This document shows, in pieces, positions 7,521 through 63,069 of a stretch of DNA of 64,000 nucleotides (its first letter is position 1; every line of letters begins with the position of its first letter). The notes below the pieces were generated by a model, which saw only the letters and a program-made list of their open reading frames with translations, was not told the DNA's origin and searched no databases. The DNA is taken from the NCBI GenBank assembly GCA_021296325.1, contig JAGWAR010000004.1, positions 53,126 through 117,125 on the forward strand. The letters are read 5' to 3'. The translations under genes were made by a program, and so were the position numbers. The stretch is from Alphaproteobacteria bacterium (GTDB lineage: Bacteria > Pseudomonadota > Alphaproteobacteria > GCA-2746255).

Positions 7521-7538
7521 GGTGTTCTCTCCTGAGGT

Positions 7539-8045: not shown

Positions 8046-8097
8046 TCCGTTCCTTCCCCTTCCAGCACTTTTCTTGAAAGCATCCTGTTCTGCTAGA

Positions 8098-8126: not shown

Positions 8127-8249
8127 TCAAGGCCTTGGCGGGACCAAGCCTGCACTGCCCGGATGACCTCTTTATTATATAGAGGCGGGCACAGGGGACA
8201 GAAACACCGGCCTGCCTATGTTTTTTTATGTTTTTTTCCCCAAATTTTC

Positions 8250-8411: not shown

Positions 8412-8608
8412 CCCGCTTTCCGGCCCATCTTCCGCCACGGCTTGTCTCCTTGTCCCCCGTTCCCGCGAACCCAGCATAGGTTTCGGGCCACCCCCCGGCA
8501 ACGGTCCAAATTTAAGCTAAATCCGGCCGAAAAGACCGGCCCCGGCGTGCCCGCCCGCAACGAAGCATTAACCGCGGCGCATCTACACTTTCGGCTGGAA
8601 CCGCAAAT

Positions 8609-41698: not shown

Positions 41699-41715
<17 letters not shown>
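41047..41715 (+). CDS. hisG: ATP phosphoribosyltransferase, short form
   Basis: 222 aa, TTG start. [16 protein letters not shown]...[13 protein letters not shown]...[14 protein letters not shown]. Confidence 0.9.
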
Positions 41716-42999
<1,284 letters not shown>

Positions 43000-43003
<4 letters not shown>

Positions 43004-45403: not shown

Positions 45404-47779
45404 ATGGCCGTTTTGTCGATCGCTCCTGCCACTTTATTGCGCTTTGGGAATCTATCGTTCTCGATCCGTGGAAAATTCGTCGCCCTGGCCGTCGGCATCG
45501 CGCTGTTTGCCTCGCTCGCCATCGGCGGCGTTGGCTACATGCGCGTCGTCGATATTTCCCTGGACCGGGAGGTCGCCACCCTGGAAGGCCAGGCCCGCCT
45601 GGTCGTTCCGCAGATCAAGGCCGCTTACGACCTGCTTCGAAGCGATGCGCTGATCGTATCGCAAACGCCGCCATTCAAGGGACTGGCCCGTTCGATGCCG
45701 AACGGCGATGTCGATCCGAGGGACGGCTCCACGACCGAAGACTGGCGCCGGCGTCTCGCGACGATTTTCACGTCCGTCATGGCCTACCATCCCGAATTCG
45801 TTCAGATGCGCTACATCGGGATCGCCGATGGCGGAAGAGAACTGGTTCGTGTCGATCGGCGGGGGGAACAAACCTATGTGACTCCCCTCCAGGGACTGCA
45901 ACGGAAGGGCGAGGAGTCCTATTTCACCGAAGGGGTCCGGCTAAACGTAAACGAAGTCTATTTTTCTCCGATTACGCTCAATCGCGATTACGGCCGGATC
46001 GACCACAACCTTCCTGTCGTCCGGATCGTCGTGCCCGCCTTCGCACCCAATGGCCAGCTCTTCGGCTTGCTCGTGATCAACGCGCATTATGAAAAGTTTC
46101 TGAGGGGAATCCTTAACGAAATTCATCCCGACGGCGACACCTACCTGCTGAACGATACCGGCGACTACATCTCGAAATCCAGTGACGGGAAGGTGTCCGC
46201 CCTGCAATTTCGGGGCTTGGCGGAAGGGGCCTCCCCGCCCGCCACGATCCGGACGCTGCACACGGCGACGACTTTCGACACGACGGTGTTCCACAAGCTT
46301 GACAACGAAAAAGTTGCCATCCACGTGACGAAGATTGCGCTCACCGGCAGCGGCGGCGCCAGGTTTCTCAAGATTGCCCTGGTTGTTCCGGAGGTAAAGC
46401 TGCTTGCTGAGGCTTGGGATACGCGCCAGTCGTTTGCGATGGCTGGCGCGTTGCTCGTGGTCTTCGCCTTGCTGTTGGCCCTGGTCTCTGCCCGGGCGAT
46501 TTCGCAACCGCTTCGCCAGATCGTTGATGAAATTCGCGCATTCGGTGGCGGGCGAACGACCCTGAATCTTCCCTCAAACCGTGCCGACGAAATCGGCGAG
46601 CTTTCGGTCGCGTTCGAAAACATGATCCAGCGGCTTGAAGTCTCCAACAAGGCCAAACGCGAAGCTTTCGAACGGTTGGAGGCGATGCGGGACGAGGCCG
46701 TGGACGCGCTGATCACGACCGACATAAACGGCACCGTGCTCCAGTTCAACAAAAGCGCGGAGAAGCTTTTCGGCCATGCCACGGCCGATATCCTCGAAAA
46801 AAACGTTTCCGTGCTCATTCCGGAATCCCATGGCCGGCAACATAACGGCTATCTGGCGAAATATCGCGAAACGGGAGAACGCGACGTCAGGGACGAGGTC
46901 AGGATTGTCGATGGGTTGCGCAGGGACGGCTCGACCTTTCCCGCCGAACTGCGCGTCAGCGACATCCGCGTCGGCAGTGAGCGATTTTTCAATGGCATTG
47001 TCAGGGACATCAGCGCCCGGATCGAAATGGAGAAGAAGATCGACGGATATGTGGGCGAGCTTGAGCGCAGCAACCGCGACCTCGACGATTTTGCCTACAT
47101 TGCCTCCCATGACCTGAAGGAACCGTTGCGGGGCATTTCCAATCACGTCCGGTTTCTGCAGGAGGACTACGAGGATTTGCTCGGGGAAGGCGGAAAGAAG
47201 CGGGCCGACCGGATACGCCAGCTTTGCCAAAAAGCCGACAAGCTTACGACCGACCTGCTCGAATGGTCGCGCCTGGGGCGTACCGCCTACCAGTTTGAGG
47301 AGATCGACACGAAGGAGATCGTCCAGACCATTATCGAATCCCTGTCCGAGTTCCTGCAGGAAAAGAAGGCTACGGTCCAGATCGTCGAGCCGCTGCCGAC
47401 GGTGAAAGGGGACCGGGCGCGCCTTTCAAGCGTGTTCCAGAACCTGATCGTCAATGGCGTCAAATACAACGACAGCGCGGACAAGCGAATCGAGATCGGT
47501 TTTCTTACCGGCCAGCCGGCTCCCGATGGCGGTCAGGCGGATGTTTTCTACGTGCGCGACAACGGCATCGGCATCGCCGCCGAGTTTCATGACACCGTCT
47601 TTACGATCTTCAAACGGTTGAACAGCGAAAAGACCTTTGGCGCCGGTACCGGTGCCGGGTTGAGCTTCGTCAAGAAGATCGTCGAACGGCATGGCGGGCG
47701 GATATGGATCGTTTCGAAACCAGGCGAAGGGACCACGTTTTATTTCAGTCTTAAAGGAAGCGAAAATGCACATAGCTAA
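45404..47779 (+). CDS. Sensor histidine kinase (TM, Cache-like periplasmic domain, HAMP, PAS, HisKA, HATPase)
   Basis: 791 aa. TM FVALAVGIALFASLAIGGVGY and AGALLVVFALLLALVSA. H-box IASHDLKEPLRGI. DNGIGI, GTGAGLSF. Confidence 0.88.
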   Translation: MAVLSIAPATLLRFGNLSFSIRGKFVALAVGIALFASLAIGGVGYMRVVDISLDREVATLEGQARLVVPQIKAAYDLLRSDALIVSQTPPFKGLARSMPNGDVDPRDGSTTEDWRRRLATIFTSVMAYHPEFVQMRYIGIADGGRELVRVDRRGEQTYVTPLQGLQRKGEESYFTEGVRLNVNEVYFSPITLNRDYGRIDHNLPVVRIVVPAFAPNGQLFGLLVINAHYEKFLRGILNEIHPDGDTYLLNDTGDYISKSSDGKVSALQFRGLAEGASPPATIRTLHTATTFDTTVFHKLDNEKVAIHVTKIALTGSGGARFLKIALVVPEVKLLAEAWDTRQSFAMAGALLVVFALLLALVSARAISQPLRQIVDEIRAFGGGRTTLNLPSNRADEIGELSVAFENMIQRLEVSNKAKREAFERLEAMRDEAVDALITTDINGTVLQFNKSAEKLFGHATADILEKNVSVLIPESHGRQHNGYLAKYRETGERDVRDEVRIVDGLRRDGSTFPAELRVSDIRVGSERFFNGIVRDISARIEMEKKIDGYVGELERSNRDLDDFAYIASHDLKEPLRGISNHVRFLQEDYEDLLGEGGKKRADRIRQLCQKADKLTTDLLEWSRLGRTAYQFEEIDTKEIVQTIIESLSEFLQEKKATVQIVEPLPTVKGDRARLSSVFQNLIVNGVKYNDSADKRIEIGFLTGQPAPDGGQADVFYVRDNGIGIAAEFHDTVFTIFKRLNSEKTFGAGTGAGLSFVKKIVERHGGRIWIVSKPGEGTTFYFSLKGSENAHS

Positions 47780-48221
47780 TCTGCACCCAATCATGATCGT
47801 CGAGGATAGTGACGACGATTATGAAGCGACCGAGCGGGCACTGAAAAAAGACGGCCGTCTTGCCAATCCGGTGATCCGGTTTGAAAACGGCGAGGATGCG
47901 GTTCGCTACCTTCTCAATGAGGGGCCTTATGCCGACAGCAGGCAATTTCTCCAGCCCATCATCATTCTGCTGGATCTGAATCTTCCCGGCGGCGGCGGGC
48001 TCCATGCGCTCTCGCGAATCAAGGCCGTGCCCAAGCTGTCCACGATCCCGATCGTCGTGCTGACCTCCTCCGGCGACCGGCGCGACGTCGAGAAATGCTA
48101 CGAAGCTGGTGCCAACACCTACGTACAGAAGCCGGTCGAACTGGATAGCCTGTTCACGGCCGTCCAGCAGCTGAAGGATTACTGGCTTGGTCTGGCGCTT
48201 CTGCCCGGGGAAAATGCGTGA
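47766..48221 (+). CDS. Single-domain response regulator (Rcp1/CheY-like)
   Basis: 151 aa. Overlaps the kinase end by 14 nt. IMIVEDSDDD, ILLDLNLPGGGG, VVLTSS, YVQKP. Confidence 0.88.
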   Translation: MHIANLHPIMIVEDSDDDYEATERALKKDGRLANPVIRFENGEDAVRYLLNEGPYADSRQFLQPIIILLDLNLPGGGGLHALSRIKAVPKLSTIPIVVLTSSGDRRDVEKCYEAGANTYVQKPVELDSLFTAVQQLKDYWLGLALLPGENA

Positions 48222-49138
48222 CCGAATCGCCGACGGTACTGCTGATCGACGACAACCCGGACGACCGCGAGGTCGTTTCGCGGTTGCTGCGTGACTCGTT
48301 CACGCCTGCCGCGACGATCATCGAGGCGGAAGACGGCAAAAGCTGACTGGTAAAATTACGGGCCGGGAACGTTGATTGCGTCATCCTCGATTTTTCGATT
48401 CCCGGAGAGGACGGCGTCACGGTCATGCGGGAAATCGCGCTTCGCTATCCGGACATCGCGATGCTCATGATCACGGGCGAGGGAAATGAAAAAATCGCCG
48501 CCGAAGCCTTCCGCAACGGCGCGCAGGACTACGTCGTAAAATCCAGCCTGACCGGAGACACGCTTGCCGCCGCGATCAACAACGGGCTTAGCCGGAAGGC
48601 GGAAGAAGTGGAAATTCTGCGGCGGGCCAACCACGATGAACTGACAGGGCTGGGCAACCGGCGGCTGTTCAACGACCGTCTCGATCACATCCTCGATCAC
48701 ACCGACAGCCTGACGGCCTGTGCGGTCATCTTTTTCGACCTGAACGGGTTCAAACTGGTCAACGATACCCATGGCCATGGCGTGGGCGATGCGTTGTTGA
48801 AGGAAGTAGCCGAACGGGCGAAGAAGATATTGCGTCCGGGCGATACGCTGGCGCGGCTCGGCGGCGACGAATTCGTCATCTTGCTGGAAAACCTGCCGGG
48901 AGACGGTGCTAAAATGGCGCAAAGCATTGCCTCGCGCCTGACCGGCGAGATCCGCGACCGGGCCTACCACATCAAGGGCAGCGACATCACCATTGGTGCA
49001 AGCGTTGGTCTGGCCCTTTATCCCCGGATGGCCGATAACCGTCATGACCTCTTGCGCATTGCCGATCAGGCCATGTACGCGATGAAGCGAAAAGATGCGC
49101 AGGCGCGGGAAAAAAACAAGCGTGCCGCGAATGGGTGA
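48218..49138 (+). pseudogene. REC-GGDEF diguanylate cyclase gene interrupted by one in-frame TGA (48344-48346)
   Basis: GTG 48218 (GTGA overlap with the upstream stop) gives VTESPTVLLIDDNPDDREVVSRLL...EAEDGKS-stop-LVKLRAGNVDCVILDFSIPGEDG, in frame with track ORF 48425..49138. That ORF carries an intact GGDEF (RLGGDEFVILL) and no frameshift. The stop splits the receiver domain between the acidic pocket and the phospho-Asp. Confidence 0.65.
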
Positions 49139-50034: not shown

Positions 50035-50670
50035 TTACGCGCCCCGGCCATAGACTCGGAGGAAGCAACCGACCGCTTCGCGCACGGCGGCCTGCTTCTC
50101 CGCCGTGTCCGGTTCCTCGCCGATGCCGAGAACCAGGCGCAGATGCAGGCTCGATTTCGCGAGATCCAGGAACTGCATGGCGGCGCGCTCCGGCTCGGCC
50201 ACGGCAAGGCTGCCCTTGCGGTCCTGTTCCTTGAGATAGGTGGCGATCGAGTCGACCAGCCGTTTCGGTCCCGTCGCGTAGAACGTCGCGCCGAGTTCCG
50301 GGAAACGCGCGCTTTCGCCCACGACGATGCGGAAAAGGGCGATCCCGTTCGGCGACGTCACCAGGTTCAGGAATTTCTCCCCGACCGTCTGGAGAACCTG
50401 TTCGGGCGGGCCGTCCGGGGTTTCGGCGGGCAGGGCGCGGTCACCGAGCAAGTCGCACATCGCCGTCATGACGCCGGCGAACAGCGATTCCTTGCTCGCG
50501 AAATAGCTGTAGACGGTACGCTTCGAGACGTTGGCGTCGCGCGCGATCGCGTCCATCGTCACGGCGCCGTAGCCATATTCCAGGAACAACCGGCAGCCGG
50601 CCCGCAAGATCGCTTCCCGCTTGGGGCTGGGGGCGTCGTCGGGGTCGGGAGAGGGCAGGGGTGCCGCCAT
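50035..50670 (-). CDS. TetR/AcrR-family transcriptional regulator
   Basis: Preferred start is ATG 50670 (RBS GGAGGAA 5 nt upstream); the track ORF extends to TTG 50703. [23 protein letters not shown]. Confidence 0.85.
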
Positions 50671-50704
50671 GGGTTCCTCCAGAAGGGCCGGAAAACCGGT
50701 CAAG

Positions 50705-50769
50705 ACTACACCGTCTAGTTTACCCTTGACAGGGGAGTCGACCAGACTAAACTACACCGTCTAGTTTAC
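50705..50769. promoter_or_regulatory. Duplicated 19-nt operator-like element bracketing a sigma70-like promoter for the RND operon
   Basis: ACTACACCGTCTAGTTTAC occurs identically at 50705-50723 and 50751-50769. The second copy extends to the palindrome TAAACTA-N7-TAGTTTA. TTGACA (50726-31), 16 nt, TAAACT (50748-53) lie between and over the repeats. Confidence 0.55.
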
Positions 50770-50844
50770 ACCGAATCGATGGGCCCTGTCCAGGGCCTGC
50801 CGGTCCGCCGACGCGGTAACGAAATCCGACCCAACGGGGGCATC

Positions 50845-53199
50845 ATGTTCGCCAAATTCGGCATCACCGTCACCGGTTACACGGAATGGGTGCTGCGTTT
50901 CCGCTGGGCGGTGATCGGACTCACGCTGCTGGTTGCGTTCGCCATCGCCAGCGGCGCTGGCCGCCTCGGCTTCTCGACCGATTACCGGGTGTTCTTCAGC
51001 AAAGAAAATCCCCAGCTCACCGCGTTCGAGGATCTGCAGAACGTCTACACGAAGGACGACAACATCATCTTCGTCCTCAAGCCGGCCGAAGGCAGCGTGT
51101 TCACGAAAGAGACGCTTCGTGCCGTGCGCACGCTGACCGACGAAGGCTGGAAGATCCCCTTTGCGACCCGCGTCGACTCGCTTGCCAATTTCCAGCACAG
51201 CTACGCCGAGGGCGACGACCTGACCGTCGAGGATCTGGTGCGCGACCCGGACGCGCTTGCGCCCGAGGACCTTGAGCGTGTCCGCGACGTGGCCCTTGCG
51301 GAGCCGCTGCTGATCAACCGGCTGATCGCGCCGGACGCGCGCACGACAGCCGTCAACATCAACCTGACACTGCCGATGCAGCATGCGGGCGAGGGGCCGG
51401 AGGCGTTGGCCGCCGGCCGGGCGCTGGCCGAGCGCGTGCGGGCCGAGCATCCCGACCTCAAGATCGCCATCACCGGCATCGCGCCGCTCAACAACGCCTT
51501 CACGGAGGCCAGCCAGAACGACCTGCAGACGCTGATCCCGCTGATGTCGGTGGTGCTGTTCCTGGCCATGATCCTGCTGCTGCGTTCGATCAGCGGCACC
51601 TTCGCCACGATGCTGGTGATCGGCCTTTCCGCAGCGACCGCCATGGGGGTGGCCGGCTGGATCGGCATCGAGCTGACGCCGCCCTCCGTTTCGGCGCCGA
51701 CGATCATCCTGACCATGGCGATCGCCGACAGCGTCCATATCCTGGTGACGATGGGCCAACAGATGGCACGGGGGGCGACGAAGCGCGAAGCGATCCTCGA
51801 AAGCATGCGGATCAATTTCCACCCAGTTTTTCTCACCAGCCTGACGACGGCCATCGGCTTCTTCAGCCTGAACTTCTCGGACGCGCCGCCCTTCCGCGAC
51901 CTCGGCAACATCACCGCCTTCGGCGTCATCGCCGCCTGGGTCTATTCCGTCCTTTTCCTGCCGGCGCTCATGTCCATCCTGCCGCCCCAGCTGATCCGGC
52001 GGCGGAAGACCGGCGCCGACCGCATGGAGAGGCTGGCCAATTTCGTCATCGCCAAGCGCATCCCGTTCCTGTGGGGAGCCAGCCTCTTCGTCATCACGAT
52101 GGGCGTCCTGATCCCGCGGATCGAGTTGAACGACCAGTTCGTCAACTACTTCGACCCGTCCATTCAATTCCGCGCCGACACCGATTTCGCCATGGAGAAC
52201 CTCTCCGGCATCTATCAGATCCAGTATTCGCTGCCGGCCGGCGAAAGCGGCGGCATCAGCGAGCCGGAGTATCTGCGGCAGCTCGACGACTTCGCGAACT
52301 GGCTTCGGCAACAGCCGAGCGTCGTGCACGTCCAGACGCTGACCGATGTCATGACCCGGTTGAACAAGAACATGCACGCCGACGACCCGGCCTGGTACAA
52401 GCTGCCCGACGTTCGCGAGCTTGCCGCGCAATACCTTTTGCTGTTCGAGATGTCGCTGCCTTACGGGCTTGACCTCAACAACCAGATCAACGTCGACAAG
52501 TCCTCCGTGCGCGTGATCGCAACGCTTAAGAACATCTCGACGCGGGAGGCGCGCACGCTGAAATCGGATTCGGAAGCCTGGCTTGCGACCTACATGCCGA
52601 CGGCGGCCGAGGTGGAGGGGAGCGGGCCGTTCGTCATGTTCTCCTACATTTCCGAGCGCAACATCAAAAGCATGCTGACGGGCACTGCGCTTGCCTTCGT
52701 GCTGATCTCGCTCTCGTTGATCCTGGCGCTTCGCCACATCCGGCTTGGCCTGCTTAGCCTGGTGCCGAACATGATTCCGGCGGTGATCACCTTCGGGCTC
52801 TGGTCGATCATGGTCGGCGAGATGGGGTTGGCCGCCTCCGTCGTGGTGGCGACGAGCCTCGGCATCATCGTCGATGACACCGTGCATTTTCTTTCGAAAT
52901 ACCTCCGCGCCCGCCGGGAGCGGGGATTTGATTCGGCGGATGCCGTGCGTTATGCCTTTTCAACCGTCGGAACGGCGCTGGTCGTGACGTCCATCATTCT
53001 GGTTGCCGGCTTCGGGGTGCTGGCGTTTTCCGCCTTCGAGCTCAACCAGAGTCTGGGCCTGCTGACGGCGATCTCCATTACCGCCGCGCTGGTCGCGGAT
53101 TTCACCCTGTTGCCGGCGTTGTTGATCGTGCTTTCGCAAAAGAAACCCCCCGAGGAGAAGGCCCATGTTGTGGACCTGGCCACCGACCCCGCGAAATAG
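50845..53199 (+). CDS. RND-superfamily exporter (MMPL/HpnN-like, COG1033 type)
   Basis: 784 aa from ATG 50845. Two blocks of about 6 TM helices, each preceded by a large soluble loop. No AcrA/TolC-type partners; LolA-like and beta-barrel genes follow instead. Confidence 0.8.
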   Translation: MFAKFGITVTGYTEWVLRFRWAVIGLTLLVAFAIASGAGRLGFSTDYRVFFSKENPQLTAFEDLQNVYTKDDNIIFVLKPAEGSVFTKETLRAVRTLTDEGWKIPFATRVDSLANFQHSYAEGDDLTVEDLVRDPDALAPEDLERVRDVALAEPLLINRLIAPDARTTAVNINLTLPMQHAGEGPEALAAGRALAERVRAEHPDLKIAITGIAPLNNAFTEASQNDLQTLIPLMSVVLFLAMILLLRSISGTFATMLVIGLSAATAMGVAGWIGIELTPPSVSAPTIILTMAIADSVHILVTMGQQMARGATKREAILESMRINFHPVFLTSLTTAIGFFSLNFSDAPPFRDLGNITAFGVIAAWVYSVLFLPALMSILPPQLIRRRKTGADRMERLANFVIAKRIPFLWGASLFVITMGVLIPRIELNDQFVNYFDPSIQFRADTDFAMENLSGIYQIQYSLPAGESGGISEPEYLRQLDDFANWLRQQPSVVHVQTLTDVMTRLNKNMHADDPAWYKLPDVRELAAQYLLLFEMSLPYGLDLNNQINVDKSSVRVIATLKNISTREARTLKSDSEAWLATYMPTAAEVEGSGPFVMFSYISERNIKSMLTGTALAFVLISLSLILALRHIRLGLLSLVPNMIPAVITFGLWSIMVGEMGLAASVVVATSLGIIVDDTVHFLSKYLRARRERGFDSADAVRYAFSTVGTALVVTSIILVAGFGVLAFSAFELNQSLGLLTAISITAALVADFTLLPALLIVLSQKKPPEEKAHVVDLATDPAK

Positions 53200-53983
53200 C
53201 CTCCCTTGCCTGCTGGTTCTGCTGATCGGCCTTTGGGCCGTGCCGGCGGGCGCGGAGAGCCCCGAGGAGAAGGGGCTTGCCATCGCCAAGGAGGCCGACC
53301 GCCGCGACCTTGGCTGGCAGGACAGCGAGGTCGATCTGGACATGACGCTGCCCAACCGCAACGGGGAATCCAGTACGCGGTCCCTGCGCATCCAGTCCCT
53401 CGAGGTGCCGGACCCCAATTTCGGCGACAAGAGCCTGACCGTGTTCGACGAACCCCGCGACATCGAAGGCACGGCGTTCCTGTCCCATACGAAAATTCTG
53501 GAACCGGACGACCAGTGGCTTTACCTGCCGGCCGTCAAGCGTGTGAAGCGCATTTCGTCCGTTAACAAGTCCGGCCCCTTCGTCGGCAGCGAGTTCGCTT
53601 ATGAGGATATCGCGAGCCAGGAGGTGGGCAAGTACACCTACAAATGGCTTCGGGACGAGCCTTGCGGCAAGTTGCAGTGCTTCGTCGTCGAGCAATATCC
53701 GCGCTACGAATATTCGGGCTACACGAAACAGATCGTCTGGATCGACCAGGGCGAATACCGCGTCATGAAAGTCGAATTCTACGACCGCAAGGACGAGTTG
53801 CTGAAAGTGCTCGTGCAGTCGGAATACCAGCGCTATCTGGACCAATACTGGCGGCCCCACCGGATGCATATGGACAACGTGCAGACCGGGAAGTCGACAA
53901 CCCTGCAGTTTAAGAACTACAATTTCCGGCTTGGCGTCGATGAAGACGATTTCACGTCCAGCCGTTTGAAGCGGGCCCGTTGA
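53165..53983 (+). CDS. Outer-membrane lipoprotein-sorting (LolA-like) protein
   Basis: 272 aa. Signal peptide LPCLLVLLIGLWAVPAGA. Recalled family features WLYLPAVKRVKRIS and GSEFAYEDI. Confidence 0.7.
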   Translation: MLWTWPPTPRNSLPCLLVLLIGLWAVPAGAESPEEKGLAIAKEADRRDLGWQDSEVDLDMTLPNRNGESSTRSLRIQSLEVPDPNFGDKSLTVFDEPRDIEGTAFLSHTKILEPDDQWLYLPAVKRVKRISSVNKSGPFVGSEFAYEDIASQEVGKYTYKWLRDEPCGKLQCFVVEQYPRYEYSGYTKQIVWIDQGEYRVMKVEFYDRKDELLKVLVQSEYQRYLDQYWRPHRMHMDNVQTGKSTTLQFKNYNFRLGVDEDDFTSSRLKRAR

Positions 53984-55203
53984 CGAACGCACGCGCTTTT
54001 TTATTGCTGGTTCTGGTTTTCGCGCCGTTTTCCCTTGCCGCGCGCGACGCGGCGGCCGGCGAGTTCGATCTTTCGGGCTTCGTCGCCTTCGAGACGCGGT
54101 ATTTTCCGAACGCGCCTCTTTTTGCCGGGCAGGGCAGCGCAGAACTGTCGCCTTCCGTGGTAGCGGAACCGGAGTTCGTCTATGAGTGGAACCGGCGCAA
54201 GGACCGCCTGACCTTCGTTCCTTTTGCCCGGTTCGACGCCGACGACGACCGGCGCACCCACGCCGACATCCGCGAGGCGAACTGGCTGCACATCGGGGAC
54301 GGGTGGGATCTGGTCGTCGGTTTCGAGCGCATCTTCTGGGGGGTCACCGAATCCCGTCATCTCGTCGACATCATCAACCAGTTCGACGGCGTCGAGGACG
54401 TCGACGACGAGGACAAGCTTGGCCAGCCGATGGTGAACTTCCGCCTGCAGGAGGATTGGGGGACGCTTTCCGCCTTCGTGCTGCCCGGTTTTCGCGAGCG
54501 CACCTTCGTCGATGACGACGCGCGCCTGCGCGGTCCGTTGCCGATCGACGACGACGATCCGACCTATGATTCGGCCGCCGGGGAAGCCCATGTCGATGTC
54601 GCGCTTCGCTGGTCCCGCACCATCGGCGACTGGGACATCGGCCTTTCCCATTTTCACGGCACCAGCCGCGAGCCGCGCCTGATCCCGACGCTTCGGCCCA
54701 CCGGCGAGGTCGTGCTGGTGCCCCATTACGACCAGATCGATCAAAGCGGGCTGGATTTGCAATGGACGATGGAGGCCTGGCTCTGGAAGCTGGAGACGAT
54801 GACCCGCAGCGGCCACGGCAAGCGCTTCGTGGCCAGCGTCGCCGGGGTTGAATACACGCTCTATCAGCTCTTCGAGACGGTCTACGATCTGGGCCTCCTG
54901 GCCGAATACCAGTATGACGGCCGCGATAAGGCGAACGCCCCCTTCACGCCGGCGGACGGCGACCTTTTTCTTGGCATGCGGCTGGCGCTGAACGACGTGC
55001 AGAGCACGGAGGCGCTGGCGGGGGCGAGCTTCGACCGGACGTCGGAGGCCGTTCTCTTCTTTGTCGAGGCGGAACGGCGGATCAGCGACCACTACAAGGT
55101 CGAGCTTGAGGGCCGCTTCAATTTCAACGCAAAGAACGACGTCCTGCTCTCGAATATCCGGGAGGACGATTTTCTGACCCTGCGCCTGAGCCGCTATTTC
55201 TAG
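53980..55203 (+). CDS. Putative outer-membrane beta-barrel protein
   Basis: 407 aa, TTG start overlapping the upstream stop. Signal peptide FLLLVLVFAPFSLAA. Alternating beta-strand pattern. C-terminal LRLSRYF, an aromatic terminus typical of OMPs. Confidence 0.6.
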   Translation: MTNARAFLLLVLVFAPFSLAARDAAAGEFDLSGFVAFETRYFPNAPLFAGQGSAELSPSVVAEPEFVYEWNRRKDRLTFVPFARFDADDDRRTHADIREANWLHIGDGWDLVVGFERIFWGVTESRHLVDIINQFDGVEDVDDEDKLGQPMVNFRLQEDWGTLSAFVLPGFRERTFVDDDARLRGPLPIDDDDPTYDSAAGEAHVDVALRWSRTIGDWDIGLSHFHGTSREPRLIPTLRPTGEVVLVPHYDQIDQSGLDLQWTMEAWLWKLETMTRSGHGKRFVASVAGVEYTLYQLFETVYDLGLLAEYQYDGRDKANAPFTPADGDLFLGMRLALNDVQSTEALAGASFDRTSEAVLFFVEAERRISDHYKVELEGRFNFNAKNDVLLSNIREDDFLTLRLSRYF

Positions 55204-55340: not shown

Positions 55341-56831
55341 ATGGGGGAAAGGGGCGCTTTGGCTGGGTCTTTCGTTCGAGTGCAGCAGGGGAAACGCGTG
55401 CGGAGCGAACTTGAGAAGGAGTGGGATGCCAAGGCACTGAAGCTTGGTAAGCTCAATCTTCGCTTCACAAGCGACGAGACGGAGCGACACTACCGGATCA
55501 TGCATATCCGGCAGTCGCTGCCCACCATCTGGCTTTCCATCCTGGCCGGTATGTTTCTCTATGCCGTCTTCGGCATTCTCGATCTTTACGTGGTTCCGGA
55601 CAAGCTGACGGAAATCTGGACCATCCGTTACGCTATCGTCTGCCCGATCCTGATCGGGGCTTTCCTCGTCACGCTTACGAAATATTTCATTCGCGTCTCG
55701 CAGGTTGTCCTGGCGCTTGGCATGCTGGTGCCGGGGTTGGGCATTCTGGGCATGGTGGCCGTCGCAAATACGCCGGGCAATCATCTTTATTATGCCGGCC
55801 TTATTCTCGTCATCATCTATTGCTCTTCTTTAAGCGTGCTTCGCTACGTGTACGCGGCAGCCGTCTCCGTGACGTTGCTGTTGATTTACCAATACGTCGC
55901 GCTGGTCATTAATCCGATTCCCAGCGAGACGTTGATCAACAACAATTTCTTCCTGATCGTCTCCCTGGCCGTCGGCGTGTTCACCAGCTACACCCAGGAG
56001 CTTTATATCCGGCAGAACTTCGTCAATACGCAGCTGTTGCTGAGGGAAAAGGGCCGCACCGACCAATTGCTGGACGAGGCGCGCGCCAGCAACCAGGCCA
56101 AGACGGAATTCCTTGCCGTCATGAGCCACGAGCTGCGCACTCCCTTGAATGCCATCATCGGTTTTTCCGAAGTGATCAAGCAGCAGATGTTCGGTCCCGT
56201 CGGGTCGAAGAAATACCTGACCTATATCGACGATATCTATAACAGCGGCACGCATCTCCTGGGGTTGATTACGGACATCCTCGACCTTTCGAAGGCGGAA
56301 GCCGGCCGGCTGGTGCTTCGGGACGAGGTTGTCAATCTGACGGAAGTGCTGGACGGGTGCCTGCGCATGTTCCGCGAGCGGGCGGCGGAGACCGGGGTCC
56401 GGCTGCAGTTCGACATGCCGGGCGTGGCCACCCAGGTGCGGGCGGACCCGCGTCTGTTGCGCCAAAGCTTCATTAACCTCATCTCGAACGCGGTGAAATT
56501 CACCCAGAAGGGAGGCTCGGTGCTGCTTTCCATCGGTCACGCCGAGAATGGGGGCGTCCACGTGCGGGTGGAGGACAGCGGCATCGGCATCGCGGAAGGG
56601 GACCTCAAGAAGGTCGTCGAACCCTTCGTGCAGGTGCAAAGCGCGCTTACCCGCGACCATGAGGGGACCGGCCTTGGCCTGCCGCTTGCCAAGAAGATCA
56701 TGGAATTGCACGAAGGCTCGCTCGCGATCGAAAGCGAGATCGGGACCGGCACCGTCGTCACGGCCATCCTGCCCGCTAAGCGGGTCATCCCGAAGGCAGG
56801 GCCGCCAAGCCTGTCGGGGGATGCGGCCTAG
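55341..56831 (+). CDS. Membrane sensor histidine kinase (polytopic N-terminal sensor, HisKA, HATPase)
   Basis: 496 aa. About six TM helices. H-box [36 protein letters not shown]. Visibly lower GC than its neighbours. The exact start is uncertain. Confidence 0.85.
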
Positions 56832-58282
56832 GCGTTGATTTCCGGTTTTTGCAGATAGAGAAGCTGGATGCGGTCCGTCGCATCGGCCTTGATCGTGACG
56901 TTGGCCGAGGGCAGGTCCTTGGCCAGCGCCAGCATGTCGGATTCCGACCGGTAAACGAGACTCCAGTCGCAGAGAAATTCCGCCGGCCACAACAGGCTGA
57001 CGGGGCTTTTCTTGACGTTGCCGATGACCAGGAAGCCGCCCGGCGCCAACTGTCGGTAAAGCCCGTCGATGAGGGGGCGGGCCTTGCGCGCGTCCAGATA
57101 ATCCACGAGACCGACCGTGTAGATCAGGTCCTGGGCCGGGATGTTGTCGAGGAGGCGTTCGCCTTTCAGGAGCTGGCGGAAGGAGACGTGGAGGCAATTG
57201 ACCGTGGCCTGTTCCTTCAGCCGCAGGGTTTCTGGGTAGGTGCGCTCGTACGCCTGAGTCAGGGCCTGATGGTCCTGGTCGATCAGGGTGATGTGAACGG
57301 CCTGGGGAAGCATGCCAAGGCGCAGGTAGTTGACGATTTCCTGGGCCGGGCCGCAGGCCAGATTGGTGATCTGGACGGGGCCGCCCTTTCTGGCCACGAC
57401 TTCGGCAATCGTCTGCTGCATCATCACCATGCGGTTGGCGATGCATTCCATGCCGTCCAATCCGATGCGGTGCAACAGCTTGCCGAACGCACTCGCCCCC
57501 TGGCGGCGCCAGGCGTAGACGTAATTCATGACTTCGAAGTCGCCCGGATAACCAAGCGGCTTTTCGTAACTACGCTGCCAGATCGGGCCTTCGAGAAATT
57601 CCGGCGTCAGCGCCAGTTCGGTGAATTGTTTCGTCGCCTTGCGCGCCTCCGGGTCTTCCATGACAGGCTCGACGAGGGCGTTGGCCTGGTACCAGAGGGC
57701 GCGGCACTCGGGCAGGATGCGTTCTTCACACAGGGTGAGCACGTCGGCCAGGCGGGCGTCGTCCGCCGGCGTATGGGGGTTCGACCCGCCGTCGAACTTC
57801 TCCAGCGCCGAGCGATAGCGGCGCAACAGGTACAGCACGTCGGCGACCAGTTCGCGGTAGGCGGACGGCACGCGTTCGCTGGCTACGGCGAGGCCATCTT
57901 CGAGTTCGCGCTTGAGGCAGACTGCTTCGTGGCGGGCGACGAGTTCCGGAATGTTCAAATAGCCGCTGGTCAGTTGGATGGCGACTTTCGTGCCGAAGGG
58001 GGTCGGCTCGACGCGGCAGATGCGTCCGCGGCCTTCGTGCAGGACGGAGCCGCCGAGGCGAAGCTGCACCGGCACGACTTCGCCCTGTTCGCCGGACCAG
58101 TTCATCCGGGGACTGGCAAAGACGGCAAGGCCGCTCATGCTTACGTCGTGAAGCGTCAGGGATGTGTGATCGATTTCGATGTCCGGCAGGGTCCGGCGAA
58201 ACAGATCCCGGACCTTGTAGCGATCGGCCCGGTAGTAAACCCGGCGCCCTTCCTCCCCAACCAGCTCTTCATAGGCCTTCAT
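56828..58282 (-). CDS. PilZ domain fused to a class I SAM-dependent methyltransferase
   Basis: 484 aa. PilZ motifs RRVYYR (RxxxR) and HDVSMSG (DxSxxG). C-terminal MTase motifs ITNLACGPAQE, HITLIDQD, DLIYTVGLVDYL, LAPGGFLVIGN. Confidence 0.85.
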   Translation of the reverse strand: MKAYEELVGEEGRRVYYRADRYKVRDLFRRTLPDIEIDHTSLTLHDVSMSGLAVFASPRMNWSGEQGEVVPVQLRLGGSVLHEGRGRICRVEPTPFGTKVAIQLTSGYLNIPELVARHEAVCLKRELEDGLAVASERVPSAYRELVADVLYLLRRYRSALEKFDGGSNPHTPADDARLADVLTLCEERILPECRALWYQANALVEPVMEDPEARKATKQFTELALTPEFLEGPIWQRSYEKPLGYPGDFEVMNYVYAWRRQGASAFGKLLHRIGLDGMECIANRMVMMQQTIAEVVARKGGPVQITNLACGPAQEIVNYLRLGMLPQAVHITLIDQDHQALTQAYERTYPETLRLKEQATVNCLHVSFRQLLKGERLLDNIPAQDLIYTVGLVDYLDARKARPLIDGLYRQLAPGGFLVIGNVKKSPVSLLWPAEFLCDWSLVYRSESDMLALAKDLPSANVTIKADATDRIQLLYLQKPEINA

Positions 58283-58310
58283 GGTGTGCCTCGTTTCGAG
58301 AGCGTGTTCG

Positions 58311-58334
58311 TTAATCTTTGTTAAGAAAGATTAA
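58311..58334. promoter_or_regulatory. Perfect 9-bp inverted repeat TTAATCTTT-GTTAAG-AAAGATTAA upstream of the PilZ-methyltransferase gene
   Basis: Read directly. Begins 29 nt upstream of the ATG at 58282, in the 143-nt gap after the hybrid kinase. AT-rich in a GC-rich context. Confidence 0.5.
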
Positions 58335-58425
58335 TCATAAACGCCGCCGGAAGGCAAACCGGGATCGCGCCAAAAGGTCGAGAATTTCAGGAAGTTAGGC
58401 CCATATCCCGGCCGGGGCGGCGGGT

Positions 58426-61400
58426 TCAGGCGGCGGCCAAGGTCTCGCGGATTTTCATGGCGAGCACGCGCTTGCGGTAGGGTTTTTCGACGAGGTCGGT
58501 GCCAAGGTCGCCCCAGTCGAGGGGTTCGGGGAATTCTCCCACATAACCGGACGTCAGCAGCACTTTCAGGCCTTCCCGCCGCGCCCGCGCCTTCTTGGCA
58601 AGCTCGACGCCATTGAGGCCCCGGGGTAGCACGACGTCGGTGAACAGCAGGTCGATGTTGGGCGTCGAGTCGAGCAGCTTGAGCGCGGCGAAAGCATCCT
58701 CGGCCTCGATCACCCGGTAGTTGAGGCCGGTCAGCATCCGTTTCGCCATGCTGCGCATTTCCATGTCGTCCTCGACGACCAGGATCGTCTCGCCGTTCCC
58801 TTCGAGTTCCTGCAATTCGGGCAGCGTGGTTTCAGCCGCCTCGACGCCTTCGGCCGCCGCCGGCAGGTACACCCGGATGGCCGTTCCTTCGCCGAGTGCG
58901 CTTTCGATCCGGATCTGGCCGCCGGACTGCCGGATGAACCCGTAGACCACGCTTAAGCCGAGGCCGCTTCCCTTGCCGACGCCCTTCGTCGTGAAGAAGG
59001 GATCGAAGACGCGGGCCTGGTCGTGTTTCGGAATGCCGATGCCGGTGTCGCGAACGGTCAGGAGGACGTAGCGGCCGGAGGCAGGTTTATCGTCGGGCGC
59101 ATCGGCGGCATCGATGTCGGCGTTTTCGGTCGTCAGGGTGAGCGTGCCGCCGCCCGGCATGGCGTCCTGGGCGTTGAGCGCCAGGTTCAGGATAACGCTT
59201 TCCAGCTGGTTCGGATCGACCATGGCGGGCCAGAGGTCATCGGTGAGGCGGGTTTTGATCTCGATGACCTTGCTGAGGCTGTGTTCGAAGAGTTCCGTCA
59301 TGCCCGAGACCAGCTTGTTCAAATTCGTGGGCAAGGGCTGCAGCGCCTGTTTGCGCGAGAAGGCGAGCAGGCGCTGGGTCAGCGCCGCCCCGCGGTCCGC
59401 CGCCCCGAGCGCGCGGCGCACGAAATTCCGGATGGCCTCGTCCCTGGCGGTTTCGTCCAGCAGCTCCAGATTGCCGATGACGACGCCGAGCAGGTTGTTG
59501 AAGTCATGGGCGATGCCGCCGGTCAGCTGGCCAATCGCTTCCATCTTGGTCGCCTGGCGAAGCTGTTCCTCGGCCTGCTTGAAGGCGGTGATGTCGTGGA
59601 AGCCGGAAAGCAGGGCTTCCTCACCCTCATAGACGACCTTGTGAACGGAGAGCAGGACGCTTATCGGCGTGCCGTCCGCCTTCTTCATCTCGAGCTCGTA
59701 GCCGGTCAAATTGCCGGTTTGTTCGACAAGCTCCTTGATGGTCTCGCGTTCCTTTGGGTTCTGATAGAACTCCATCGTCGGACGGCCGATCAGGCTTTCC
59801 GGGTTCGTATCGAAGGCGGTGCCGACATGGGTGTTAGCGTAGGTAATGCACCCGTCGGAGGTCCGGGCGATGATCAGCGGCAGTGGCGAGCCCTCGACGA
59901 CGGCGCGGAACCGCGCTTCGCTTTCGCGAAGGGCCTTTTCGGCCGCCTTGATCTGGGTCACGTCGTGGACGATGTTCATCACCGCGTCTTCGTTGTCGAA
60001 AGTGATGCGGGCGATCGAGACGACCGCCGAGATCGGCGTGCCGTCCACCTTCTTCAGATTCACCCCGACGTCATGAAGATGGCCTTCCCGTATCAGGCGT
60101 TTCATGATCGTGACGCGGTCGGACGGGTCCTGATAGAAGTCCGGGCTTTTCCATGCGGCGGTCAGTTTGCCGCCGGGCACGTCGTGGAGTGCGGCCACCG
60201 CCGGGTTCGCGTAGAGGAACGTGCCGTCCGAAATCCGGTTGATGGAAATGGGGACGGGGGCGCGTTCGGCGATGTTGCGAAAGCGCGCCTCGCTTTCGCG
60301 AAGCGCCTGCTCCATCTCGGCGCTTTCGGTGATGTCCATGGCGATCGAGCAGATCTCGGTCGGATTGCCGTCGCCGTCCCGAAGCGCGAATTTCGTTCTT
60401 CGGAAGTAGTGGAGTTTGCCGTCCTTCATCCGCTGCACGATGCCCTGTTCGTAGCTTGGCTCGGAGGAGCGCGCGACCTCCATGTCCCGCTCGTGGGTCC
60501 GTTTTGCCGCGTCCTGGGTCAGGGGGCCTTTCGCATAGGCCTCGACCGCCGTCTTGCCGACGAGATCCTCCGAGCGCAGGCCAAGCATGTCCTCGTAGTA
60601 GCGGTTGACCCATTTGTAGCGCCCCTCGAGGTCCTTGAGCGAGACGCAGAACGGCGCGTAATTCAGGATGCCCTGAAGCTGCAGATGGCTGGTTTGCAGG
60701 GCCTTCTCGGCCTCGCGGCGCTCGGTCACGTCGCTGAAGGTGACGACGGCGCCGACCACTTCCCCGTCCTTGCGCAACGGCGTGCTGGTGTATTCGATGG
60801 GAAAGCTGGTGCCGTTCTTGCGCCACAGCACCTCGTCCTTGCGGTGATGGACCGTGCCGTCCATGAAGGCCCGGTACATCGGGCAGGCCTCGGCGGGGTA
60901 GGGGCGGCCGTCCGGGTAGCTGTGGTGGATCAGCGGGTGCAGCTTCTGGCCGATCAGCTCCTCGATGGCGAAACCGGTCATCTCGGCGACGGCGGGGTTG
61001 ACGAAGGTGCCCTGGCCTTCGAGATCCAGTCCGTAAATCCCTTCGCCGACCGATTCGAGGATCAGACGAAACTGCTCTTCATTGGCGCGCAGCGCCTCTT
61101 CGATCTTCTGGCGGTCGGTGATGTCGTGGACGATGGAGCAAAGCTCGCTCGGCTTGCCGTTCTCGTCGAGAATCAGGAACTTCGTGCGCTGAAGGGTGCG
61201 GGTCTGGCCGTCGTGGGGGCATTTGAAGCTTTCCTGGTAGAGGGGCTTGCCGGTCCGCAGCAATTCCTTGTCCGAACTCCGGCTTTCCTCGAGGAAGGCG
61301 GTATCGATGGGGGAAGCCGAGAAGGCGTCTCCCGCTGTTTTCCCGACGATAGCGTCGGGGAGCGGTATGCCGGTCAGGCGCGCGTAGTAACGGTTGACCC

Positions 61401-63069
61401 ATTTGTAGCGCCCGTCCGTGTCCTTGAGTGCGATCCCGATCGGCGCGTAGTCGAGGATGCCCTGCAATTGCCGGTGGCTTTCCTTGAAGGCTTCCTCGGC
61501 CCGCTTGCGTTCGGTGATGTCCATGGCGATGGAGATGATCTCGTCGGGCTTGCCGTCGGTTCCCATCAGCGGAAATTTCGTCGCCAGCAGGGTGCGTTCC
61601 TCGCCCTTGAGGACGCGGACGGATTCGAAATTCTGCATCGGCTTGCCGCTTTGCAGCAGTTCCTTGTCCTCCCGCTCGATCTCGGCCAAGACCTCGGGGG
61701 ATTCGTGGAAACGGTCGACGGCCGTCTTGCCGACGACGTCTTCGCTTTTGATGCCCGAGCCCAGTTCGTACTGGCGGTTGAAGACCCGGTAGCGGCCGTC
61801 AGTCCCCTTGATGGTGATGTAGATCGGGCTGTAGTCGAGGATGCTCTGAAGGCGGCGTTGGCTTTCCTCAAGCGCCTCTTCGGCGGCGCGCCGTTCGGAG
61901 ATATCGATGGCGATGCCGCAAATCTCGTTCGGCTCGCCGTCCGGCCCGCGCAGCAGGAACTTCGTGACCAGCGCCGTTCGCTCCTTGTCGGGAAAGCCCC
62001 GCGTCGTCATGTATTTTTCAAGGGGACGGCCGGTCTTGAGAAGCGCCCGGTCCTCCCGCTTCGTCTGGGCGACGACGTCGGGCTGATCGGGGTAGCGTTC
62101 CTCGATCGTCTTGCCGATCAGCGCGGCGTTGGTCTGGCCCAAGAGCTCTTCGTAACGGCGGCTGAACAGCTTGTAATGGCCGTCGACGTCCTTGATCGAG
62201 ATCATCAGCGGGCTGTAATCGAGAATGCCCCGCAGGCGGCGGTTGCTTTCCTCAAGGGCGGCTTCCGTCTTCTTGCGCTGGGTGAGATCGTAGATCTGGC
62301 TGACGAAGTAGAGGGGGCTGCCCTCCGCGTCCCGGACCAGGCTCACGCTCAACAGGCCCCAGACGGCGTGGCCCGCCTTGTGGAGGTAGCGCTTCTCCAT
62401 CTGGTAGGTCGAGATGTCGCCGGCCAGCGTCTGGCGGAAATGGGCGAGGTCTTTCTCGAGGTCGTCCGGATGGGTAATCGCCTCAAAGTTCTTCGCCAAC
62501 AATTCCGCCTCGTCGTAGCCGGTGAACTCGCAAAGCGCACGGTTCACCTTTATGAATTTGCCTTCGGGATCGACCAGGGCAAAACCGTGGGGAGCCGCCT
62601 CGAAGGCGCTGCGGAAGCGTTCCTCGCTTTCGCGGAGCGCGCGTTCGGCGCGGGCCCGTTCCGTCAGGTTGGTGGCGGTCGAAAACAGGGCAAGGTCGTC
62701 GTTGTAGACGATGGGGTGGGTGGACAGCTGGGCGGAGAAAACCTCACCCGTGGCCGAACGGAGATCGAGGGGGAAGTCCTTGACGACGCCCTGTTTCTCG
62801 AGGGCGGCGACGAGGTGGTTCCGCCGCGCCGGGTCGACGTAGAAGTCCGTAACCTTGCGGCCGATCAGCTTTTCGACGGGCGTGGCGAAAAGCTGCCCGC
62901 CCGGTTCGTTCACGTAGAGGATCCTGCCGTCTTCGGCGCGCGAGATGAACAGCGGCACCGGCGCCGCATCGACGACGTTGCGCAAGCGCCGTTCGCTTTC
63001 GTCACGGCGACGGTCGCCCTTTCGGCGGCGCAGGTGGCTGTTCTGGAAATCCGCAGGCTGGGCTTTCAA
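58426..63069 (-). CDS. Hybrid sensor histidine kinase/response regulator with about nine PAS domains
   Basis: 1547 aa. Nine PAS cores counted by eye. H-box GGIAHDFNNLLGVV. HATPase (DTGIGI, GSGLGLS). C-terminal REC (ILVVEDDMEMR...LLFTDVVLP...LLTSGY). Confidence 0.9.
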   Translation of the reverse strand: MKAQPADFQNSHLRRRKGDRRRDESERRLRNVVDAAPVPLFISRAEDGRILYVNEPGGQLFATPVEKLIGRKVTDFYVDPARRNHLVAALEKQGVVKDFPLDLRSATGEVFSAQLSTHPIVYNDDLALFSTATNLTERARAERALRESEERFRSAFEAAPHGFALVDPEGKFIKVNRALCEFTGYDEAELLAKNFEAITHPDDLEKDLAHFRQTLAGDISTYQMEKRYLHKAGHAVWGLLSVSLVRDAEGSPLYFVSQIYDLTQRKKTEAALEESNRRLRGILDYSPLMISIKDVDGHYKLFSRRYEELLGQTNAALIGKTIEERYPDQPDVVAQTKREDRALLKTGRPLEKYMTTRGFPDKERTALVTKFLLRGPDGEPNEICGIAIDISERRAAEEALEESQRRLQSILDYSPIYITIKGTDGRYRVFNRQYELGSGIKSEDVVGKTAVDRFHESPEVLAEIEREDKELLQSGKPMQNFESVRVLKGEERTLLATKFPLMGTDGKPDEIISIAMDITERKRAEEAFKESHRQLQGILDYAPIGIALKDTDGRYKWVNRYYARLTGIPLPDAIVGKTAGDAFSASPIDTAFLEESRSSDKELLRTGKPLYQESFKCPHDGQTRTLQRTKFLILDENGKPSELCSIVHDITDRQKIEEALRANEEQFRLILESVGEGIYGLDLEGQGTFVNPAVAEMTGFAIEELIGQKLHPLIHHSYPDGRPYPAEACPMYRAFMDGTVHHRKDEVLWRKNGTSFPIEYTSTPLRKDGEVVGAVVTFSDVTERREAEKALQTSHLQLQGILNYAPFCVSLKDLEGRYKWVNRYYEDMLGLRSEDLVGKTAVEAYAKGPLTQDAAKRTHERDMEVARSSEPSYEQGIVQRMKDGKLHYFRRTKFALRDGDGNPTEICSIAMDITESAEMEQALRESEARFRNIAERAPVPISINRISDGTFLYANPAVAALHDVPGGKLTAAWKSPDFYQDPSDRVTIMKRLIREGHLHDVGVNLKKVDGTPISAVVSIARITFDNEDAVMNIVHDVTQIKAAEKALRESEARFRAVVEGSPLPLIIARTSDGCITYANTHVGTAFDTNPESLIGRPTMEFYQNPKERETIKELVEQTGNLTGYELEMKKADGTPISVLLSVHKVVYEGEEALLSGFHDITAFKQAEEQLRQATKMEAIGQLTGGIAHDFNNLLGVVIGNLELLDETARDEAIRNFVRRALGAADRGAALTQRLLAFSRKQALQPLPTNLNKLVSGMTELFEHSLSKVIEIKTRLTDDLWPAMVDPNQLESVILNLALNAQDAMPGGGTLTLTTENADIDAADAPDDKPASGRYVLLTVRDTGIGIPKHDQARVFDPFFTTKGVGKGSGLGLSVVYGFIRQSGGQIRIESALGEGTAIRVYLPAAAEGVEAAETTLPELQELEGNGETILVVEDDMEMRSMAKRMLTGLNYRVIEAEDAFAALKLLDSTPNIDLLFTDVVLPRGLNGVELAKKARARREGLKVLLTSGYVGEFPEPLDWGDLGTDLVEKPYRKRVLAMKIRETLAAA

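Follow-up and report, generated by a model that had tools for sequence, protein, structure and literature searches.

What does a protein that joins a PilZ domain to a methyltransferase do, and which of the kinases encoded beside it is its partner? The question is raised by a 484-residue protein encoded in a stretch of 64,000 nt (the window, to which all coordinates refer unless a locus is named) of contig JAGWAR010000004.1 from an Alphaproteobacteria bacterium (GCA_021296325.1). A first-pass annotation, made from the letters alone, had read the protein as a receptor of cyclic di-GMP (c-di-GMP) fused to a class I S-adenosylmethionine (SAM) methyltransferase, had pointed to a likeness to Ralstonia PhcB, and had suggested that the protein is wired to a multi-input kinase encoded upstream of it. 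The analysis established the domain identities, the homology of the protein to PhcB and of a convergently encoded kinase to PhcS, the conservation of this gene pair and its association with transporter genes. The fullest explanation, a c-di-GMP-gated synthase of the PhcB type with its cognate receptor kinase, is one to which we give about an even chance. The principal features are as follows.

56828 to 58282, minus strand: the 484-residue protein, comprising a PilZ domain, a helical lid and a class I SAM methyltransferase (PhcB-family catalytic module); from the open reading frame, an AlphaFold2 (AF2) model with a predicted local distance difference test score (pLDDT) of 87.4, full-length homologues and homology to PhcB
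57872 to 58282, minus strand: PilZ domain, residues 1–137 (disordered loop 1–18, six-stranded barrel 34–104, C-terminal helix 111–137); from the model, Foldseek and Pfam
58220 to 58246, minus strand: arginine-rich loop R13-R14-V-Y-Y-R18-A-D-R21, which reads RRxxxR in this copy and of which the family keeps [RK]13, R18 and R21; from alignments
58130 to 58147, minus strand: D46-V-S48-M-S-G51, the [D/N]hSxxG c-di-GMP motif; from alignments
57389 to 57865, minus strand: helical lid, residues 140–298; from the AF2 helices
57536 to 57562, minus strand: signature KPLGYPGDF, residues 241–249, within the lid; its counterpart in Ralstonia PhcB is KPLGYAGDY
56849 to 57376, minus strand: Rossmann-fold SAM-binding core, residues 303–478, with EFLCDW at 435–440; from AF2, alignments and Foldseek
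55341 to 56831, plus strand: PhcS-like sensor histidine kinase with about six transmembrane (TM) helices, a HisKA domain with H263 and a HATPase domain; from Pfam, TM prediction and homology to PhcS
55515 to 55988, plus strand: six-TM region of the kinase, residues 59–216; from the TM helices

The open reading frame and every motif quoted in the first-pass annotation were found where it had placed them: RRVYYR at residues 13–18, DVSMSG at 46–51, LACGPAQE at 308–315, LIDQD at 333–337, VGLVDYL at 390–396 and PGGFLVIGN at 414–422. The start codon is backed by a GAGG sequence 8 nt 5' of it and by the N-terminus MKxYEEL, which is kept in homologues. The AF2 model of the full protein, built with 36 homologues in the alignment (predicted template modelling score 0.71), lays out the chain as a disordered segment (1–18), a beta-barrel (34–104), a long helix (111–137), a helical bundle (140–298) and a Rossmann domain (303–478).

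The full-protein Pfam matches all fell below their gathering scores; the PilZ fold was decided by structure prediction. A scan of the 484-residue protein against NCBIfam matched no model, and searches of PDB sequences, run both with the protein itself and with profiles, gave marginal matches only (NodS, PfPMT and YcgR at E 0.2), so that a fold search was needed. Modelled alone, residues 1–140 (AF2, pLDDT 86) form strands at 34–37, 40–48, 51–56, 69–76, 79–94 and 97–104 as assigned by DSSP, with a helix at 111–137. When this model was compared with the PDB by Foldseek, PilZ domains led the matches with a probability of 1.0 (MotI, BcsA, Alg44, YcgR, VCA0042, PlzA, PA0012 and MapZ). The Pfam PilZ model (PF07238) was matched at E ≤ 0.01 by 25 of 30 diverse N-termini of the family, the best at 1e-8. 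By fold and by motifs, the N-terminus is firmly identified as a PilZ domain.

Motif residues were counted in three sets: 118 close homologues, 127 representatives at 50% identity and 117 distant homologues. D/N46, S48 and G51 were held in every close and every distant homologue (118/118 and 117/117), and among the representatives [DN]46 was present in 113, S48 in 98 and G51 in 115. R18 and R21 are near-invariant across the family; together with [DN]xSxxG they occur in 115/118 close homologues, 93/127 representatives and 117/117 distant homologues. The arginine motif of the family is [RK]13-x4-R18-x2-R21, which the window copy extends by also satisfying RRxxxR. Both canonical PilZ motifs are thus present in this copy, as the first-pass annotation had it, whereas the family conserves R14 poorly and keeps R18 and R21. 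The pattern given for the arginine loop of PilZ domains by Galperin and Chou is RxxxRhxh. R21-Y22-K23-V24 fits its Rhxh portion, so R21 would be the structural second arginine; the position expected for the first arginine is then F/Y17, and R18 is off by one. The strong conservation of the motifs argues for ligand binding, and the altered spacing keeps c-di-GMP binding a matter of inference.

At the C-terminus, strands and helices alternate over residues 303–478 in the AF2 model, in a class I Rossmann-like arrangement. The SAM residues G311, E315, D335 and D394 are kept in all homologue groups and in nearly all sequences aligned, and LACGPAQE and LIDQD are conserved among homologues; the complete class I motif set that had been claimed for the protein therefore withstood alignment, and the fold agrees with it. 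A Foldseek search with the full model returned 3ocj as its best match (E 4.5e-11), with small-molecule methyltransferases at the top, and 929 PDB matches at E ≤ 0.001, of which those listed were almost all methyltransferases. Among the 50 best matches listed, most were methyltransferases of small molecules, of tRNA (CmoA) or of polyketides. Matches of the full protein to Pfam Methyltransf_12 and Methyltransf_20 were below the gathering score. The C-terminus is a class I methyltransferase of the small-molecule type with its SAM residues intact.

In Ralstonia, PhcB makes 3-hydroxymyristic and 3-hydroxypalmitic acid methyl esters (3-OH MAME/PAME) and PhcS senses them (PMC8578825, PMC11960443). 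For comparison with genuine phc loci, metagenome contigs were searched with a 20-mer of the GMI1000 phcB primer phcB-L2 (PMC5481312), and seven of the contigs retrieved encode relatives of the 484-residue protein; a scan of the metagenomes with a phcS start primer gave 0 matches. One retrieved contig, L098, encodes a PhcB of 470 residues, a PhcS of 442 residues with its histidine at 230, the same position as published (PMC11960443), and a PhcR of 368 residues (REC, HisKA and HATPase domains). Its PhcB shares 97% identity with a Ralstonia sp. protein and 77% with a protein recorded as 'class I SAM-dependent methyltransferase PhcB [Ralstonia pseudosolanacearum]'. A 358-residue receiver protein is encoded upstream of phcB on L098 (5949–7025 of that contig, minus strand); it fits the published position of PhcX (LqsR-family) and so further confirms a genuine phc locus.

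Over residues 210–469, the 484-residue protein is 30% identical to R. pseudosolanacearum PhcB P0395 (E 1e-26) and 31% identical to the L098 PhcB (E 1e-30). A profile alignment with hhalign extended the match to 394 columns, joining residues 66–471 of the 484-residue protein to PhcB 49–455 with a probability of 99.9% (E 1.2e-34). PhcB and the 484-residue protein share the signatures KPLGY[PA]GD[FY], GCGPAxE and E..L.W.L.YR, have similar lengths (464–470 and 484 residues) and have the same order of barrel, helical domain and Rossmann domain. JGI names for many homologues carry the KEGG PhcB label. The PhcB likeness to which the first-pass annotation had pointed was thus borne out, and sequence comparison firmly places the protein among PhcB-type methyltransferases.

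The N-terminal domains of the two proteins were also compared. When the N-terminal 100 residues of PhcB were aligned with the PilZ-type barrel by hhalign, the match was weak and covered the last three strands (E 0.0067, probability 5.7%); there was no Pfam match either, and by these comparisons the PhcB N-terminus is not recognisable as a PilZ domain, although it may keep a degenerate barrel. These 100 residues are near-invariant among the Ralstonia sequences compared. The PhcB proteins of L098 (3881–5293, minus strand) and a second contig, L092 (2959–4350, plus strand), differ at just 3 of their first 100 positions and are 74% identical overall, so that the N-terminal domain is under more constraint than the catalytic domain.

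The partner of the methyltransferase gene was sought among its neighbours in other genomes. A relative of the 484-residue protein is encoded in 504 stretches among 185,579 species-representative genomes scanned, and the best 80 of these 504 (the 80 loci), all alphaproteobacterial (Parvibaculum, Stellaceae, Rhodospirillales, Oceanibacterium and Tepidicaulis), were surveyed by tblastn and clustering of open reading frames. The convergent kinase adjoins the methyltransferase gene in 78 of the 80 and is its sole near-universal neighbour; of the two loci that lack it, at least one is cut at a contig end. In the window both genes end on the palindrome CTAG at 56828–56831, which holds the TAG stops of both, so that the stops overlap each other as the first-pass annotation had described. 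That annotation had treated this membrane kinase as incidental, whereas it is the conserved partner and a homologue of PhcS. The window kinase is 26% identical to Ralstonia PhcS over its full length (454 aligned positions), and a profile of the six-TM sensor domain of the alphaproteobacterial kinases scored 34–40 bits on PhcS. At three distant loci, one from Myxococcaceae and two on metagenome contigs, a gene for a membrane hybrid kinase directly adjoins that of the methyltransferase and runs in the same direction; the two genes overlap by 4 nt at two of these loci. On the three kinases the same profile scored 50.6, 46.0 and 14.8 bits. Within the family a PhcR-like gene was found only at two of these distant loci, L083 and L084, where a protein of about 377 residues with REC and HATPase domains comes third, giving a phcB-phcS-phcR-like order. 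MASE8 was dropped as a candidate sensor domain, as precomputed weak matches in the distant loci were not reproduced by hmmscan. On the evidence of sequence, the convergent kinase is firmly assigned as a PhcS homologue, sensor domain included; with the one homologous to PhcB and the other to PhcS, the methyltransferase and kinase are a remote PhcB/PhcS pair.

An exhaustive profile search of clusters at 50% identity found 5,525 at E ≤ 1e-3 and 1,165 at E ≤ 1e-30. The best 150 were nearly all full-length, and many homologues span 99–100% of the 484 residues. A profile built on distant members reaches Myxococcota and Acidobacteriota, many members of which carry a precomputed PF07238 assignment and one of which is named 'PilZ domain-containing protein' by NCBI; Ralstonia was not among the matches of this profile. 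Since the full-length architecture recurs in hundreds of homologues with conserved motif residues, the fusion is not a local accident, and the chance local fusion that the first-pass annotation had set against its own reading is ruled out by the 1,165 clusters at E ≤ 1e-30. The PilZ-methyltransferase fusion is ancient and widespread, being found in Alphaproteobacteria, Myxococcota and Acidobacteriota. Parvibaculum lavamentivorans, Oceanibacterium hippocampi and Aliidongia dinghuensis are carriers available in culture. A methyltransferase-only homologue, 40% identical from residue 182 onward, is encoded on a plasmid of Pseudanabaena sp. PCC 7367 (L110, NC_019690, 3418–6315). Its gene begins directly behind that of a Tn3 transposase/recombinase and converges on a HAMP kinase gene, with the same 4-nt tail-to-tail overlap. 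Since the similarity already sets in before the annotated start codon, the transposon seems to have removed the 5' end of the gene, which was rejected as proof of a form without PilZ.

Further features of the locus lie on either side of the gene pair.

50779 to 53199, plus strand: MMPL transporter; from Pfam
53165 to 53983, plus strand: LolA-like/DUF1329 protein; from Pfam
53980 to 55203, plus strand: 407-residue protein with a signal peptide and no match in the Pfam scan
58283 to 58425, minus strand: 143-nt upstream region, with blocks that its two closest relatives share and an inverted repeat of 12 nt (58311–58334); from comparison
58426 to 63069, minus strand: nine-PAS hybrid histidine kinase of 1547 residues with HisKA, HATPase and receiver domains, a lineage-specific neighbour; from Pfam and TIGR00229

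The cluster directly upstream of the convergent kinase (50035–55203) consists of a TetR regulator gene on the minus strand followed by the MMPL, LolA-like and 407-residue protein genes on the plus strand, and ends 137 nt before the kinase. The 407-residue protein was found again in the two closest relatives, L001 and L019, and the MMPL and LolA-like genes in L019 only. Across the 80 loci, the gene pair is flanked by MMPL (37 loci) or by a FadL/TodX outer-membrane channel (18 loci) in 55, with which a hydrophobic product fits, and the MMPL/LolA-like cluster is a possible export route for such a product. Some 30-odd loci of a Parvibaculum clade (L033–L079) have a second, unrelated methyltransferase (Methyltransf_23) divergently upstream. 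These loci also have an MMPL transporter gene, some 130 nt upstream of the PilZ-methyltransferase gene and in the same orientation, so that the clade shows a larger conserved cluster (for example L036, 5997–7466 on the minus strand and 7512–9839 on the plus strand).

The nine-PAS kinase is the multi-input kinase of the first-pass annotation. Its nine PAS stretches (TIGR00229) and the gap of exactly 143 nt that separates it from the methyltransferase gene on the same strand were as described, and it has HisKA, HATPase and receiver domains. The survey of neighbours that was proposed at that time did find a linked kinase, but it is the convergent six-TM one; the nine-PAS kinase lies upstream only in L001 and L019. 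The suggestion that the methyltransferase is wired to it is therefore unsupported, and it was rejected as the functional partner. Within 58283–58425, the blocks TAACTTCCTGAAATT, GTTTGC and TTAAC are invariant in L001 and L019 despite protein identities of 74–79%, and the GTTAA-N6-TTAAC core is also present in L019. These blocks and the inverted repeat suggest that transcription of the methyltransferase gene is not just a continuation of that of the PAS kinase gene, and the 143 nt are, judged from their conservation, probably a regulatory region of its own. Scans of this region for a sigma-70 consensus and for terminators found nothing convincing and nothing better than shuffled sequences, and a sigma-54 promoter was rejected because the GG-to-GC spacing is wrong.

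The only c-di-GMP-making gene noticed nearby encodes a REC-GGDEF diguanylate cyclase about 8 kb from the PilZ protein (48218–49138, plus strand). It has an in-frame TGA at 48344–48346, inside the receiver domain, which could reflect a pseudogene, a sequencing error or read-through, and it is preceded by a dCache-HAMP-PAS histidine kinase (45404–47779) and a single-domain receiver (47691–48221). Two other genes of the window have no evident connection to the PilZ-methyltransferase: a soluble di-iron monooxygenase alpha subunit with Phenol_Hydrox and YHS domains (37033–38538, minus strand), about 18 kb off, and histidinol dehydrogenase (41699–43003).

In the model of a gated signal synthase, c-di-GMP would lodge between the disordered arginine-rich loop (R13, R14, R18 and R21) and the strand that carries D46-x-S48-x-x-G51. 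Ordering of the loop would shift the C-terminal helix of the PilZ domain (111–137), which is continuous with the lid (140–298) above the SAM and substrate pocket of the core (303–478), and this shift would turn methyl transfer to a hydrophobic carboxylate on or off. The product would leave through lipid-type transporters, here MMPL and LolA-like, and would be detected within the membrane by the six-TM kinase of the convergent gene, the PhcS homologue. We infer the binding of c-di-GMP, the direction of gating, the substrate, the export and the synthase-receptor relationship from sequence. The phc cluster is held to be restricted to Betaproteobacteria, mainly Ralstonia and Cupriavidus (PMC10653808), and the PilZ-type family is instead alphaproteobacterial, myxobacterial and acidobacterial. 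It is a tentative proposal, which we would sooner doubt than rely on, that the family represents a large undescribed branch of PhcB/PhcS outside Betaproteobacteria in which the synthase is gated by c-di-GMP through the fused PilZ domain, Ralstonia PhcB being a derivative that has lost the gate.

Several results weigh against the gated synthase, and some of them also favour its main rival. In this rival, which we think unlikely but take seriously, the protein is again a methyltransferase like PhcB, but its PilZ-like barrel is no c-di-GMP receptor and serves as a structural, dimerisation, substrate-delivery or partner-binding module. The barrel would then have the kind of role presumed for the N-terminal domain in Ralstonia PhcB, and its conserved arginine, aspartate, serine and glycine residues would bind another ligand or make an intramolecular contact. 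The canonical RxxxR is not kept in the family: R14, the canonical first arginine, is arginine or lysine in just 29/127 representatives and 3/117 distant members, the family pair being RxxR with F/Y where the first arginine is expected. We know of no binding data for the R18-x-x-R21 spacing. The conservation of Y4-E5-L7-G9-G12 in the N-terminal segment is unusual for a PilZ loop, and the Pfam PilZ assignment is marginal. The scan that had been proposed as a check on the PilZ domain failed with the full protein (19.5 bits against a gathering score of 22.5) and barely succeeded with the isolated N-terminal 140 residues (22.7 bits). Burkholderiales PhcB is active without the motifs (PMC8578825), so the N-terminal domain may have another role: unlike the 484-residue protein, none of 116 Burkholderiales PhcB proteins has either R18 or [DN]xSxxG, and hence 0/116 has the full set, while Pfam PilZ matched 0/25 of them and did not match the L098 PhcB. 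Against a non-binding barrel stand the joint presence of [DN]hSxxG and two arginines in 93/127 representatives and in every one of the 117 distant members, the match of the fold to c-di-GMP-bound PilZ structures, the predicted disorder of the loop, as in apo PilZ, the RRxxxR of the window copy, and the report that PilZ domains within fusion proteins keep c-di-GMP binding (10.1101/814665).

Other results, too, weigh against the gated synthase. No GGDEF domain was found by tblastn within about 10 kb at the 80 loci, and GGDEF/EAL genes were rejected as conserved neighbours. Ralstonia phcBSRQ is an operon, whereas here the methyltransferase and kinase genes are convergent with overlapping stops, and no gene for PhcR, PhcQ, PhcA or PhcX was found in the window or nearby beyond generic kinase similarity. 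With an identity to PhcB of only about 30% in the catalytic half, the protein may act on another substrate. It could methylate a lipid or metabolite outside signalling, in modification of envelope lipids, detoxification or storage, with the kinase regulating the pathway instead of sensing an autoinducer. The low identity and the absence of PhcR, PhcQ and PhcA from the window would suit such a role, as would the MMPL, LolA-like and FadL neighbours, which are lipid-transport genes and not signalling genes, and the second methyltransferase of the Parvibaculum-clade cluster. We nevertheless regard it as decidedly improbable: the six-TM sensor of the kinase is homologous to that of PhcS, which is known to sense what PhcB makes; kinase and methyltransferase genes occur together in different phyla regardless of the other neighbours; and a gene order like that of phcB-phcS-phcR persists in distant members. 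Alternatively, the enzyme could be CheR-like and methylate the adjacent kinase or another signalling protein, with PilZ acting in cis as MapZ acts on CheR1 in trans, which would fit the strict pairing with the kinase. Weak matches to the CheR model (PF01739) were seen here (16.3 bits against a cut-off of 27, E 0.0066), in some distant homologues and in 7/25 PhcB proteins, and one NCBI record calls a PhcB homologue an 'MCP methyltransferase, CheR-type'. Every such match is below threshold, however, and restricted to the generic SAM-binding region (residues 385–422 in the 484-residue protein); CheR is absent from the 50 best fold matches listed for the full model; PhcB is a small-molecule signal synthase in the literature; and the transporter neighbours suggest a lipid-like product. 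We give this explanation very little credence.

The first-pass annotation knew of no characterised PilZ-gated methyltransferase, but a case in trans exists: MapZ (PA4608) and CheR1 of Pseudomonas aeruginosa, in which, as in the 484-residue protein, PilZ is coupled to a SAM methyltransferase. Structures of MapZ (5xly, 5y4r and 1ywu) are among the Foldseek matches of the N-terminal domain. The C-terminal helix of PilZ that forms the interface in MapZ is the helix that joins the lid of the methyltransferase here. MapZ, however, is a separate adaptor protein that works in trans on a chemoreceptor methyltransferase, whereas the 484-residue protein is a cis fusion to a PhcB-type enzyme with sub-threshold likeness to CheR. 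PilZ stands in cis with its output, as it does here, in BcsA, Alg44, YcgR/MotI, chemoreceptors (MCPs) such as Tlp1, and the Pkn1 kinase, and the PilZ domains of BcsA, Alg44, YcgR and MotI are the best structural matches of the N-terminus. Its N-terminal position is shared with Alg44, and the arginine spacing of the family is atypical by comparison with other PilZ fusions. Methyltransferase output is absent from the PilZ fusion architectures discussed in the literature examined, and neither a PilZ-methyltransferase fusion nor a link between PhcB and PilZ was found described in the literature searched. The CqsA/CqsS and LqsA/LqsS systems likewise pair the gene of an autoinducer synthase with that of a membrane-embedded sensor kinase, which has about six TM helices, lacks a periplasmic domain and responds to a signal of the lipid type. 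The synthase chemistry is unrelated: CqsA and LqsA catalyse acyl transfer dependent on pyridoxal phosphate (PLP), whereas the 484-residue protein would transfer a methyl group from SAM. These systems are not known to have a PilZ domain.

If c-di-GMP is not bound, what is left is a remote pair of the PhcB/PhcS kind, one member of which has a domain derived from PilZ; this would be of modest value and mainly for annotation. The PilZ-type family offers, in addition, a testable idea on the N-terminal domain of PhcB, for which there is so far no explanation. The influence that quorum sensing and c-di-GMP signalling have on each other is known to run mostly via transcription. If the model of a gated synthase is true, the two would meet directly and post-translationally in one enzyme, at once autoinducer synthase and c-di-GMP receptor, and a methyltransferase would join the enzyme outputs under PilZ control in cis. 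Signalling of the phc type would then extend to many environmental Alphaproteobacteria and Myxococcota, in which an intracellular messenger of lifestyle would set whether the cell emits a diffusible signal of the lipid type.

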